In this document: positions 1-3,000 of the stretch, piece after piece
Position numbering within the stretch: the first letter of the stretch is position 1
How the letters are laid out: each line of letters starts with the position of its first letter
From: Candidatus Micrarchaeaceae archaeon
Lineage (GTDB): Archaea; Micrarchaeota; Micrarchaeia; Micrarchaeales; Micrarchaeaceae
NCBI GenBank assembly: GCA_050013715.1
Contig: JBEKES010000067.1
Location: 1-3,272, forward strand
Length of the DNA: 3,272 nt
Direction: 5' to 3'
Program-made: the position numbers

Positions 1-3000
1 CTATCCAACTCTAATAGATACTTCAGTAGGATTGCTGGTGCCCATATCTACGCTCTATGCAGGGCTCGGCCTTCTCAGCTCGATAAAGCTAAGTCTTGGA
101 ATCATAAGCATAGGCTTCAACAGCATGCTAAAGCCATTGCTGACAGGGCTGGATTATATAATAGAGATATTGACCGCTGCGATCATAAGCATAGAGGTCC
201 AGGGCGTTCTCCTAAAATTCATATCGGTAATAGCCATACCCGTATTGCTGCCCATTGGAATAGTGCTTCGCACGTTATACGTTACAAGAAGGCTTGGAGG
301 AGCCATAATGGCCATAGCCATAGGCCTGTTTGCGGTTTTCCCGCTCACCTATGTGCTCAATGCCGAGCTTGCAAGCACATACCTTACAACAATAAACAAC
401 AGCACGGTCAGTAATTTCATATTGAACGCAAGCAATACCAACCAGTACATAATAAACAAGGCAACGCAGATCGGAATAACAAAAAACAATTCAAGCATAG
501 TGAGCTACTTTTTAGGTGCAATAAATGGTCTTGTGAGCGGCTTTCAGGGCTTTTTGAATACTCTAACAAATTTTGTCGCTATCATCGTTATCCAGGTTTT
601 CTTTCTGCCGATATTCAGCATCATATTAACTGCCATATCAATAAGGGAGCTTGCCAGGATTCTGGGCTCTGAGATTAGCTTCGGAAAGCTGTATTTCTTT
701 TAGGTGTTTTATTGGAACATGACATAAAGTTTTATTTGATAATAATTGTACTTGCTTTGATGGCGGTTGCAAGCATAATGACGTTGAATTTGATTGTAAT
801 AATTGCAAGCCTTGCAGTTTCAATGATTTTGATCGCATTCTACAAGCTGCATTACATAGTAGAGGCAGTGATATTTAGGCGCACCAACATCATCCAGATA
901 ATAGAAAACAGCGAAATTAGCGGTGACAGATCAACGGTCATAAGAAGGCTTGGAAGCAGTTACTGCTCGACTGCGGCAGCTTTGCTTCATAGCAGCTCGA
1001 ATGAAGCCATTGAAAAGGAAAAGATAGAGAACATAATATCTAATTCACGCTGCCCTTTCAAGTTCGTAATGCAGGTAGAGACCATAAACATCAACAAGTT
1101 GATTGACAGCCTTGAAACAAAAAGAAACATTAGAGAAATCGAGCTTGGCAGAGCAAATAATTCTGGATCCAAGGACAATGCGGCAAAAATCAATTCATTG
1201 AAGCGACAAATAGAACAGCTAGACAACGAAATTGAGAAAATAAGCTCTGGAGACACTCCGCTTAAGGTGGCACAATACATAATGACCAGTGCCGTTTCTG
1301 AAAACAAGTTCAATGCCCAGGAGAGGGCGAAATCGCAATTGCGCGAATTGGCAAGCCAATTTGGGGCTTTGCTTGGCACAAAATCAGAAATGCTAGATGG
1401 TAATGACTTAATCCAATTGCTGAAATTTGATTCGGTGATTAGTTGAAAATTAAAATGGTGCGATCGGGCATTGGTAAGCTTAGCTATCTGAAAAATAGCA
1501 CGGGTGTGTACGCATCCATGGTGAGTTCGAATCTCACTCGCAGCGCCCTTTTGGGCACTTTACTTAACTCGCACCGCCAGTATTCTTTCGAATACATTAT
1601 TTTTATGATTAATAAAATATTTAAAGAGATGGGTTGATTTGATGAATATCATAAAAAGTTCGAATTCAAAAATTGCAAGTGGAATGGTATACTTGGAGAA
1701 TATGTCTGAACCAAGCTATCCAAATGGTGAAGGGGTTTACATAGGTAGGAGTAATTTATACAGGATACCTTTCCTGCTTGATTTTGAAAAATTAATTAAT
1801 AAGAATATGGCAATAATTGGAATGTCCGGATCTGGTAAAAGTTATTTTCTAAAAAGTTTTATAATACGAAGTAATCTTAAGAAAAGTTCCTCCGTGCTAA
1901 TAATAGATTGGAATAATGAATACAAGAATGTGGTAAGCTTCCTTAATGGAAAAACATTAACACTAGGAAAAAACCTAATGATAAACTTGTTTGATTTATA
2001 TGACCTAAAAAATACAAAAAATATAAGATCAATATGTGATCTAATGAATTATTCCTTGAACCTGAACCAAGACGAGGGTTATTTCCTTTATAGCAAGATA
2101 TTGTCACTTAAATCTAAGAATTACCTGAACCTATCTCTGTTGATAAGCGAATTCAAGAATGACAAAAAAGAAACATCGGATAGAATTGCAAGCAAGCTAA
2201 TGCAGTTAAAACATAGTCCAATGTTCTCAGATGCTACTGATTTTCAAATGAATGAACTCATATACAATGTTATAAGTATAGATTTCTCAATGCTAAGAGA
2301 TGATAGTCAACGTAATGAAATAGCAAAATCTATGCTTAAAATAATAATAGAGATTATGCACAATGTAGATCTAAACAGCATTTCGAAGCAAAATGAAAGG
2401 ATAATAGTTCTTGATGAGGCATGGAGACTAATAAAAAATTCGGAGGATGTCGGCATACTGTTTAGAGAAGGCAGAAAATATGGATTTTGTGTAGCTGTTG
2501 CAACGCAGCTCGTAAACGACATAAATAATGAAGTATTATCTAATGCAGCAAGTATCTTCATTTTTCGACTTCAAAATGATACAGACTTTAAAACTCTAAT
2601 CGATTCTGGAATAATAAACCAAAAGGAAAAAAATTACATTTCGACATTACCCATAGGAAGTTGTTTTGTATCGATGGCAATAAAAGAGAATAATAAAACT
2701 AATAAATTTTTCATAAAGTCGATTGACGGGATTTCGACTTCAATTTATAATATACGAAGTGGTAAAATGCAGAATAAAATATCCAATAGAGTATTTCTTG
2801 AGTCTACAAAGGCACTTATTGTAAGTGATAATATAAAAGAAAAAGTGGTGAATTTTATTGAAGAGAACAACAATGAGATTGATGATGTACAGCTAGTTGA
2901 ATTGATGATTAAATTAAAAATAGAACGTTCAGAGATAATTTATTATCTAAGAAAAATGGGACTTAAGGATATTCAAATAATAAAGGCCTATGATTATGCA

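Follow-up and report, generated by a model that had tools for sequence, protein, structure and literature searches.

A serine-type tRNA with a phenylalanine anticodon belongs to a recurrent cassette family in Micrarchaeota: a putative RNA-only poison under a switch

The stretch of 3,272 nt analyzed here (the window), a contig of a Micrarchaeaceae genome (G000), carries a tRNA with a serine-type body and a phenylalanine anticodon. Our best explanation, to which we give a probability of about 45%, is that this tRNA is part of an exchangeable cassette that joins a tRNA of serine identity, its anticodon matching hydrophobic codons, to a hairpin and a back-facing promoter; the tRNA would mistranslate upon induction of the surrounding operon and would otherwise be silenced antisense. 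Our computational analysis establishes the anatomy of the cassette, its recurrence, the covariation of its stems, the orientation of its promoter and its rapid turnover; the combination suggests a putative RNA-only poison placed under a switch, mostly within pilus or DNA-transfer-like operons or next to them.

RESULTS

Anatomy of the tRNA and its insert

A preliminary description of this DNA had reported a tRNA with a GAA anticodon at 1456-1548, and ARAGORN bears this out with a score of 113.4. The insert has the following features.

1447..1638, no strand assigned: insert (cassette) of about 190 nt between genes p2 and p3, which abut in relatives
1457..1545, + strand: class II tRNA body with a 7/5 acceptor/T branch, G1-C72, G73 and a G2:G71 mismatch with the near 3' strand
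1490..1492, + strand: GAA anticodon; its 7-nt loop has U33 and A37
1502..1517, + strand: long variable arm with a 6-bp stem, a SerRS determinant (PMC9976931)
1536..1547, + strand: acceptor 3' strand, near copy, followed by G73-CC; one substitution
1567..1579, + strand: acceptor 3' strand, far copy, followed by G73 and an encoded CCA; a perfect 7-bp partner
1580..1595, + strand: 6-bp hairpin directly after the CCA, with equivalents in G009 and L066
1601..1634, - strand: predicted archaeal promoter facing the tRNA, with a TATA box at 1624-1617 and a start inferred near 1596

In the ARAGORN fold, the acceptor strand lies at 1457-1463, the anticodon stem at 1483-1487/1495-1499 with its loop at 1488-1494, the variable stem at 1502-1507/1512-1517, the T arm at 1521-1537 and G73 at 1545; the anticodon register is fixed because the anticodon-stem pairs covary. 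The 5' acceptor strand pairs at 7/7 positions with the far copy, 31 nt downstream. Thus, the G2:G71 mismatch previously held against the tRNA is present in the near fold and absent from the far fold, and the supposed lack of CCA is incorrect for the locus, where the second acceptor 3' strand ends in G-CCA. The far fold, with a 31-nt extra loop, is the predicted preferred form (-47.6 vs -40.4 kcal/mol), and L066 shows the same architecture with a duplicated 3' end. Compared with shuffled sequences, the 90-nt body folds only modestly better (z -1.26), and the 122-nt form reaches z -2.70. The window tRNA, with its duplicated 3' end, is probably an attenuated form, and its use may be blocked either by the mismatch of the near fold or by the 31-nt loop, without a bulge-helix-bulge, of the far fold.

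Two other readings of the duplicated end were rejected. The 31-nt segment is not an intron, because no bulge-helix-bulge is found at the splice junctions (with the strict motif, the central helix reaches at best 2/4 in all 8 registers of G000 and all 12 of L066); nor is it an attachment site, as the 13-nt end matches the window alone in G000 at up to one mismatch. The top Rfam family was tRNA-Sec, in a scan where clan overlap hides RF00005, and its alignment shows a D stem of 6 bp, one of them mismatched, where ARAGORN draws 4 bp, a difference that bears on the Sec-like long D stem with tetraloop of allo-tRNAs. We rejected this identity on the basis of the 12-bp branch (not 13), the anticodon GAA (not UCA) and a score of 35.3 bits against the 47-bit cut-off. 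The insert is not an assembly artefact: among the 4 of 17 listed sequencing runs compared, contigs of three (X2, X4 and X12) span it with 0 letters different and that of X8 covers it up to 1542.

A family of mismatched tRNAs

Twenty long-arm G73 tRNAs of this kind were found, distributed over 13 genomes, which represent six genera within a single order of Micrarchaeota, and over three metagenome contigs, with the qualification that related genomes are not independent in these counts. Their anticodons are GAA (14), CAG (2), CAA (2), UAU (1) and GAA in an 8-nt loop (1), and A35 is present in 20/20 class II copies, several searches having demanded GAA, A35 or G73. An anticodon-blind search returned 11 class II copies with a similar spectrum (7 GAA, 1 GAA with an 8-nt loop, 1 CAG and 2 CAA). 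G73, found at both 1545 and 1576 in the window, occurs in 11/11 tabulated members. The previous failure to match the tRNA in other Micrarchaeota was an effect of the cut-off, since the G009 copy is found at E 6.8e-6 and RNA models and patterns recover many more. Eighteen regions were fetched in following up the pattern searches, besides four seen earlier; a GAA long-arm tRNA in G149 was excluded from all counts for its broken acceptor, and matches in G162, G292 and G315 were rejected because they form no tRNA.

The bodies are 43-90% identical among the 13 aligned. When eight related sequences were aligned to the structure, 19/29 pairs changed on both sides and 91% of cells paired, a level reached by 0/500 shuffles and compared with 39-47% in slid controls; in helix 4, the variable arm, double-sided changes occurred at 5/8 pairs. 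Recurrence with covarying stems would not be expected of a lone decayed tRNA. The serine-type body with a phenylalanine anticodon thus recurs in diverged relatives, whereas the mobile-element and recoding parts of the preliminary description fared differently, as detailed below. That description had also overlooked the duplicated 3' end, the facing promoter and the tie to a pilus/DNA-transfer regulon.

The cassette is inserted and exchanged quickly among relatives. T4SS/Ced-like and type IV pilus operons house most copies, the cassette occupying four different junctions in one operon, and most operon-bearing genomes have none. In G113, G450 and G451 the cassette stands alone, with no surrounding operon and behind a boxed promoter of its own; that of G450 adjoins Fic/Doc and AbiEi-like genes. 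Several copies look dead, namely the first copy of G007 and that of L067, with broken acceptors, and that of G440, with the 8-nt loop, whereas those of G004 and G380 and the second of L065 are intact. Four g29 bodies (five copies including G440) lack the D-loop GG and C56, and therefore fit a non-ribosomal RNA. The presence of a class I tRNA (anticodon ACG) in this cassette in G007 and G008 is left unexplained by our best model, and a spacer without a tRNA in G001 carries the same leader motif.

A predicted promoter facing the tRNA and a shared putative operator box

The trailer of the window cassette scores 14.2 bits as a promoter in the reverse orientation and 4.8 bits forward, and was accordingly rejected as a forward promoter for p3. 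A reverse promoter score of at least 9 bits was reached in 18/22 cassettes (16/19 when the three discovered by that motif are left aside) but in 0/68 ordinary tRNA loci; the G380 copy, among the best-formed tRNAs, gave no reverse promoter score. Elsewhere in G000, 8 of 9 other sites of the motif precede a gene on the opposite strand. A sigma-70 promoter scan is unsuited to archaea.

A TACT-NN-AGTA-type box was present at 26/33 operon heads (shuffled mean 0.8, maximum 7), and also precedes the G017 pilus operon. Among the cassettes that stand alone, those of G113 and G451 are preceded by it as well, and that of G450 by a variant. The palindrome is not enriched across the G000 genome (14 seen, 11.7 expected), and neither G186 nor the C16 copy of G326 yielded it; our analysis identified no regulator of the box.

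The surrounding operon

The insert interrupts an operon whose genes in the window are as follows.

2..703, + strand: p1, a multi-pass membrane protein of 346 aa, present with its 3' part
712..1446, + strand: p2, 244 aa, with two hydrophobic helices at its N terminus, kept in the operon
1639..3039, + strand: p3, HerA/VirB4/CedB-like ATPase (Pfam DUF87, E 1.5e-15)
3020..3272, + strand: p4, 5' part of a protein of 219 aa in L064

From its operon position, p1 is a putative CedA/VirB6-like protein, an assignment that is not proven: it has no Pfam or NCBIfam family, a PDB sequence search returned nothing, and its nearest named Atlas cluster is 'CedA1 domain' (score 0.91; 23% of its members carry PF27251). 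No family was above cut-off for p2. p3 matches NCBIfam CedB at E 2.2e-20, with 72.8 bits against a 700-bit cut-off, and PDB searches gave distant HerA/VirB4 matches only. p0 matches PF18895 below cut-off (E 1.9e-4); in L064, a stretch upstream of p0 was rejected as a candidate remnant of the trailer, neither BLAST nor the RNA model supporting it. The operon resembles the Ced/Ups systems of Sulfolobales in its pilin-like gene, membrane proteins and CedB/VirB4-like ATPases (PMC11868833), and here too a type IV pilus operon is under apparently common control; however, the scores are far under the family cut-offs. DNA-damage induction is known for Ced/Ups (PMC11868833).

The locus is chromosomal and conserved in 20/20 genomes fetched from other genera. 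By eye, no integrase- or transposase-like ORF was seen in 12.7 kb around the insert, where Pfam scans covered seven proteins, four in a separate scan, and no integrase-like ORF was recognised in L064. The proposal of a tRNA borne by a mobile element (plasmid, virus or ICE) is thus not supported.

Charging and decoding

Serine identity is set by G73 and the long arm, A73 is part of the archaeal phenylalanine set, and in Haloferax a G73 keeps LeuRS from acting (PMC9976931). The window tRNA lacks the weaker serine element G30-C40 described in the same source, having A30-U40; as for phenylalanine identity, it contains G34-A35-A36 but lacks A73 and G20, with G73 and a U after the D-loop GG instead. 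PheRS reads GAA and could compete for the cassette tRNA. G000 encodes a standard SerRS (C4), a CCA-adding enzyme and an RNase P RNA; a second Seryl_tRNA_N match on C7 was rejected, being below cut-off and resembling a coiled coil, and no dedicated synthetase was seen beside the cassettes.

The normal tRNA-Phe(GAA) noted earlier on C3 is indeed there, and the carriers G000, G017, G038 and G113 all retain such a tRNA. In codon alignments of seven operon genes, TTT aligned to F in 52% and S in 1.4%, and TTC to F in 63% and S in 2.0%. Because UUY aligns to phenylalanine in homologues and the normal tRNA-Phe is kept, the earlier suggestion of recoding finds no support, and decoding would be at most ambiguous, with no code change. 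In yeast, an engineered tRNA-Ser(GAA) is lethal and extra tRNA-Phe rescues the cells (PMC6125640); allo-tRNAs with leucine anticodons insert serine and kill E. coli, and six allo-tRNA(UAU) variants are inactive in E. coli translation (PMC5389517).

DISCUSSION

We propose a model whereby the window tRNA would lack a forward promoter of its own and would depend on transcripts that start at the repressor-box promoter heading the T4SS/Ced-like operon and read through the insert. RNase P and tRNase Z would excise it, and the hairpin would cap the downstream mRNA, so that p3-p7 would still be made. Standard SerRS would charge the tRNA through its long arm and G73, and serine would be placed at UUU/UUC (CUG, UUG or AUA in the variants) in rivalry with the normal tRNA-Phe. 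The facing promoter would silence leaky expression by collision or antisense pairing, thereby confining mistranslation to times when the pilus/DNA-transfer regulon is fully on. The outcome would be a growth brake or death, and the cassette would work as an addiction or abortive module coupled to contact between cells or to the uptake of DNA.

Type I antisense toxin-antitoxin modules such as hok/sok have peptide toxins and RNA-level control. One of their traits, a convergent promoter for an antisense RNA, is present here as a prediction only. We more tentatively entertain, as a rather doubtful extension, a protein-free module of this kind, in which the toxin would be the serine-charged tRNA acting against hydrophobic codons, the antitoxin convergent antisense transcription, and the link to the cell-contact/DNA-transfer regulon of these symbiotic archaea would restrict mistranslation, in the cell itself or in a contacted host or partner, to periods of contact. 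Similarly, CreTA, which occurs in archaea, involves RNA-level toxicity held off by a second RNA or transcriptional repression, but CreT sequesters a tRNA and is repressed via CRISPR-Cas (PMC8501985), whereas the toxin proposed here is the tRNA itself.

Among mismatched tRNAs, allo-tRNAs are similar in their long arm, G73 (or U73) and non-serine anticodons, including UAU, leucine and, once, phenylalanine anticodons; some insert serine and kill, toxin-antitoxin linkage occurs, and five-stem and extra-loop forms exist (PMC5389517). They are, however, bacterial with an 8/4 or 9/3 branch, and the excerpted description mentions no facing promoter in pilus/DNA-transfer operons (PMC5389517). The cassettes are archaeal and show a 7/5 branch in 11/11 members tested, position 8 (U) facing C and being unable to pair in all 11 and the T stem having 5 bp; this fold led us to reject an allo-tRNA identity. 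Human tRNA-Ser(AGA)-2-3 G35A (PMC12993449) and yeast tS-F(GAA) (PMC6125640) likewise join a serine body to phenylalanine codons, with misincorporation shown, but are a housekeeping-gene polymorphism and a laboratory construct rather than a dedicated family with control elements. Streptomyces tRNA-ProX and the tRNA-Ser(CAG) of CUG-clade yeasts provide encoded, deliberate or tolerated mistranslation through a mismatch of body and anticodon; their identities and hosts are different, and CUG-Ser is a code change (PMC11415595), whereas UUY stays phenylalanine here. Encoded mistranslating tRNAs are thus known from bacteria (PMC5389517), yeasts (PMC11415595) and human variants (PMC12993449), and we found none in archaea, or with a facing promoter, in the open-access literature; new here is a genome-type promoter behind the tRNA that faces back at it.

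Other explanations deserve consideration. A non-translating regulatory insert, in which the tRNA shape is a cut signal for RNase P/Z, the facing promoter damps the upstream genes and the anticodon is a relic, would suit the presence of the cassette at four junctions of one operon, the upstream genes that the promoter also opposes, the several defective acceptors or loops and the class I body that can fill the slot; the damped pilin and membrane genes may encode a surface structure used by viruses. We consider this unlikely, because A35 persists in all 20 class II copies although the stems turn over, and the stand-alone cassettes with their own boxed promoter have no operon to cut. It is quite unlikely that the tRNA is an honest spare or decoy charged according to its anticodon (Phe, Leu or Ile), serving membrane- or pilin-rich synthesis, anticodon-nuclease resistance or a non-ribosomal transferase. 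Every copy has G73 and a long arm, neither of which is in the phenylalanine set, and G73 opposes LeuRS (PMC9976931); moreover, the four carriers named above keep the normal tRNA-Phe, phenylalanine makes up only 3.3-7.3% of the operon proteins, and a harmless tRNA needs no facing promoter, which ordinary tRNAs do not have (0/68). These observations have to be set against GAA being the main PheRS determinant, with A73 minor in Thermus, the match of every anticodon to a residue common in membrane proteins, and the Fic/Doc and AbiEi-like neighbours in G450.

An outward weapon, with the tRNA or its DNA sent through the contact apparatus into a Thermoplasmatales host or rival to harm its proteome, appears improbable: the producer's own SerRS should charge the tRNA too, most operon-bearing genomes lack the cassette and stand-alone copies exist, even though the cassette is co-located with T4SS/Ced-like and type IV pilus genes, its bodies are only 40-60% identical to the three host tRNAs compared, and a micrarchaeon has been described as directly attached to its host (PMC8975820). 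We assign a similarly low probability to passengers or relics, by which we mean pseudogenes of foreign tRNAs, or scars of attachment sites, decaying after their arrival at operon junctions. The att-type 3' duplication in G000 and L066, the dead copies and the tRNA-less G001 spacer with its leader motif are reminiscent of such remnants; yet the duplicated end has no other matching site in G000, and covariation together with a promoter at fixed spacing in six genera has already weakened this reading for the family as a whole.

If the switchable mistranslating cassette is real, it would add one of a new kind to the RNA toxins and would provide a natural blueprint for turning a lethal tRNA on and off. 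The cassette bears on why natural mismatched tRNAs persist, and its genetic context makes this question directly testable, because the on-promoter box, the off-promoter and the anticodon can each be changed separately in a unit of about 190 nt. In addition, our findings point to a conserved operator that the pilus genes of Micrarchaeota share with DNA-transfer-like genes and possibly with ftsZ, which would bear on the host-contact programme of these archaea.

Searches beyond the order

The signature of a tRNA with a reverse promoter gave 0 matches in 165 Micrarchaeota genomes outside the order and 22 in all prokaryote genomes, of which four are known cassettes, one a host tRNA-Asp and 17 bacterial ordinary tRNAs or chance; five matches in viral contigs included no cassette. 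Among 79 records of annotated phages and 4 of plasmids, BLAST with the 122-nt form as query returned T-arm fragments only, none covering 80%. The exact G000/G009 D-arm pattern occurred in 0 viral and 0 metagenome contigs and, with three mismatches, in 2/401 genomes of the phylum, and the G004-type D-arm pattern matched a single contig of viral origin, where it hit an unrelated cluster of phage tRNAs. In viruses, 102 matches to a class II pattern with GAA were obtained; the six that pass the pairing filter are true GAA long-arm tRNAs with bacterial-type bodies, and the majority of the remainder were out-of-register readings of Ser(UGA).

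The insert and its duplicated acceptor strand

The window holds a single tRNA (anticodon GAA; ARAGORN score 113.4), and its fold confirms the Ser-like body reported in the preliminary description: a long arm with a variable stem of 6 bp, a G2:G71 mismatch in the acceptor, and G73. Contigs from the public runs X2, X4 and X12 span the insert end to end with no differing letter and a fourth run's contig covers it as far as 1542; assembly error is therefore ruled out. The top Rfam family is tRNA-Sec, at 35.3 bits, under the family cut. The normal tRNA-Phe(GAA) described for this genome (G000) is indeed present, alongside four Ser tRNAs with archaeal-type bodies (two intron-containing calls being assigned to Ser by eye), and the three host tRNAs compared are 41-54% identical to the window tRNA. 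The supposed lack of CCA did not hold: the acceptor 3' strand is present twice, and the far copy, 31 nt downstream, offers 7/7 pairing, G73 and an encoded CCA. The predicted fold uses this far copy (-47.6 vs -40.4 kcal/mol).

1447-1638, insert between p2 (712-1446, +) and the ATPase gene p3 (1639-3039, +)
1536-1547, acceptor 3' strand, near copy
1567-1578, acceptor 3' strand, far copy
1580-1595, hairpin after the far 3' end
1436-1440 and 1634-1638, direct repeat TGATT on both sides of the insert, too short for trust

The insert is recognized as such because p2 and p3 abut in relatives. Its 31-nt loop contained no bulge-helix-bulge in any register, the repeated 3' end had no second matching site anywhere in the G000 genome, and no transposase was recognized that could account for movement of such cassettes (tRNA body, hairpin and trailer). 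Activity of the window's own tRNA copy is rather less likely than not.

A recurrent cassette family

The preliminary description had no match at E<=1e-6 in 200 other Micrarchaeota genomes; we found a family of 20 class II (long-arm) copies, spread over 13 genomes and 3 metagenome contigs and covering six genera and two families. Their anticodons are GAA (14 copies), GAA in an 8-nt loop (1), CAG (2), CAA (2) and UAU (1), in a tally for which part of the searches demanded GAA, A35 or G73. None was found in the 165 genomes of other orders searched. When the order's 248 genomes were searched without regard to the anticodon, 14 of them yielded 16 matches (reversed control 0), namely one host tRNA-Asp, two chance matches and 13 cassettes, of which two are class I ACG and 11 class II, with A35 in 11 of 11. 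In its own genus the cassette occupies this operon in 5 of 11 genomes, at four different junctions.

Location of cassettes
Junction p0-p1: G004, G007, G008
Junction p1-p2: G009 and, outside the genus, G380
Junction p2-p3: G000
Junction p3-p4: G009
Within an operon that also encodes a pilin-like protein and an ATPase of T2SSE/FlaI type: G017
Downstream of three genes with class III signal-peptide-like N-termini: G038, G186, G440, G326 (C16 copy)
Contig ends: second G326 copy, one G113 copy
Stand-alone: G113, G450, G451

The operon lacks a cassette in G001, G002 and G005 and, from p3 onward, the only part known, in G003, an unpublished genome used for this negative alone; the search gave no close p3 orthologue in G006 and G010. 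The three genes upstream of the G038, G186, G440 and G326 copies had no family match in profile searches, and we take their N-termini to resemble archaeal class III signal peptides. One or two cassettes were present in 3 of 14 other metagenome loci (L065, L066, L067); that of L066 has anticodon CAG and a 3' duplication like the window's but with its own acceptor sequence. L065 and G008 share both flanks at 99.1-99.7% identity, yet the former carries two GAA tRNAs and the latter one class I (short-arm) ACG tRNA; cassette content therefore turns over within a species.

Operon context and the upstream box

A longer metagenome contig (L064), identical to the window, extends the operon to p0 (pilin-like), p1, p2, insert, p3 and p4-p6, together with a 741-aa protein that matches ATPase families only weakly. 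The operon proteins resemble T4SS/Ced components, all scores being under family cut-offs, and in 20 of 20 fetched genomes of other genera the operon is compact, chromosomal and cassette-free.

In 26 of 33 operon heads, near-duplicate loci included, the TATA box is followed by a TACT-NN-AGTA-type palindrome (21 strict; shuffled mean 0.8), for example at L064:4533-4544. The box also lies upstream of the G017 pilus operon and of the G113 and G451 stand-alone cassettes, with variant forms for G450, G038 and G440; G186 and the C16 copy of G326 showed none. In other genomes it precedes homologous ATPase operons and occurs 100-130 nt upstream of ftsZ. Genome-wide enrichment was absent in G000, where the box also occurs at C24:1391-1402. 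Its proximity to a small winged-helix-like gene, the T4SS/Ced-like operon, type IV pilus ATPase operons and ftsZ outlines a candidate Micrarchaeota cell-contact regulon. DNA damage co-induces Ups pili and Ced in Sulfolobales (PMC11868833), a parallel to control of the cassette operon by analogy only.

A predicted promoter facing the tRNA

G000 has 10 occurrences of the trailer motif; of the 9 besides that of the window, 8 lie directly upstream of an opposite-strand gene. With a promoter matrix trained on G000 gene starts, the window's contig excluded, the antisense score of the trailer exceeded the sense score in 21 of 22 cassettes, and reached at least 9 bits in 18 of 22 vs 0 of 68 ordinary tRNA loci (16 of 19 once three cassettes found via the motif are excluded); G380 is the exception to the pattern. 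The TATA box lies 48-58 nt behind G73 with a hairpin, 79-80 nt with the duplication and 33-41 nt without a hairpin, a spacing that would place the antisense start at the hairpin's far edge. Since no forward promoter in the cassettes scored well with this matrix, downstream genes probably rely on read-through.

Charging and function

A tRNA is recognized as tRNA-Ser by its variable arm and G73, whatever its anticodon; archaeal Phe identity is set by G34-A35-A36, A73 and G20, and G73 blocks LeuRS in Haloferax (all from excerpts of PMC9976931). Both main Ser elements are present in the window tRNA; the weaker element G30-C40 is missing, as are A73 and G20 of the Phe set. Among the genes of G000 are those for a standard SerRS, an archaeal CCA enzyme and RNase P RNA. 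Intact family members are probably charged with Ser. An engineered tRNA-Ser(GAA) is lethal to yeast (PMC6125640) and a human Ser-tRNA variant misreads Phe codons (PMC12993449). The proposed Phe-to-Ser recoding is not supported as a code change: UUY codons in seven operon genes align to Phe in 52-63% of cases and to Ser in 1-2%, and tRNA-Phe is kept, being located in 3 of the 5 carriers besides G000 (G004 and G380 are only 74-79% complete).

The most likely reading, to which we assign a probability of about 0.45, is a conditionally expressed mistranslating tRNA: it would be produced together with the pilus/DNA-transfer regulon, excised by RNase P and Z, serylated and directed to hydrophobic-residue codons, while convergent transcription would keep it off. 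A regulatory insert blind to the anticodon, as the facing promoters might suggest, seems unlikely. A spare or decoy tRNA, honestly charged, is quite unlikely. We consider it improbable that the tRNA is a weapon aimed outward, despite the transfer-like operon, or, despite the G2:G71 mismatch, a relic: among 8 aligned members, related sequences fitted to the tested structure, 19 of 29 pairs show double-sided change and 91% of cells are paired. The family is very probably a selected functional RNA.

The cassette tRNA is real and recurs, with more structure than the preliminary description had shown, and may be a form of encoded mistranslation; that the cassette is a novel type of toxin-antitoxin module made of RNA alone is rather doubtful. 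Although the tRNA would work like an allo-tRNA, its assignment as one was rejected, as the hallmark 8/4 or 9/3 branch described in excerpts of PMC5389517 and PMC7609411 is absent from 11 of 11 cassette tRNAs tested; the supplements of PMC5389517 (Mukai) may hold 7/5 or archaeal cases. Searches of the open-access literature turned up no description of such cassettes in archaea.

Other tRNA-like loci

The class I tRNAs in the same slot of G008 (L111:4166-4243) and G007 (L109:8493-8570) have anticodon ACG, G73, CCA and a long, bulged anticodon stem; A34 anticodons are unusual among archaea. At L067:4787-4877 lies a dead-looking copy whose 5' acceptor strand approximates the reverse complement of the expected one, as if six bases had been inverted. 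The p1-p2 junction of G001 (L112) holds a spacer of about 90 nt with the TTAAAAT leader motif of cassettes and no tRNA, possibly an emptied cassette, and in G380 the intact GAA tRNA is immediately preceded by a second decayed tRNA fragment with a trailer-like AT-rich motif (L182:3345-3438). Outside the order, G149 has a GAA tRNA (L185:5262-5351) that combines a long arm with a disrupted acceptor stem and is probably a Ser pseudogene. Six viral contigs (L197, L198, L241, L260, L281, L295) carry bacterial-type Ser-body tRNAs with GAA and G73 whose sequences are not related to those of the archaeal cassettes, and a bacterial-type tRNA gene cluster within a Micrarchaeota bin (G237, L190:279-604) is possibly contamination or transfer. 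D-loop insertions in host tRNA-Ser(GCU) genes of several genera (L089, L090, L097, L098, L148) are probably non-canonical introns. Genes adjoining the G450 cassette (L303) include Fic/Doc (E 2.4e-10) and an AbiEi-like gene (E 0.0014, under cut-off).
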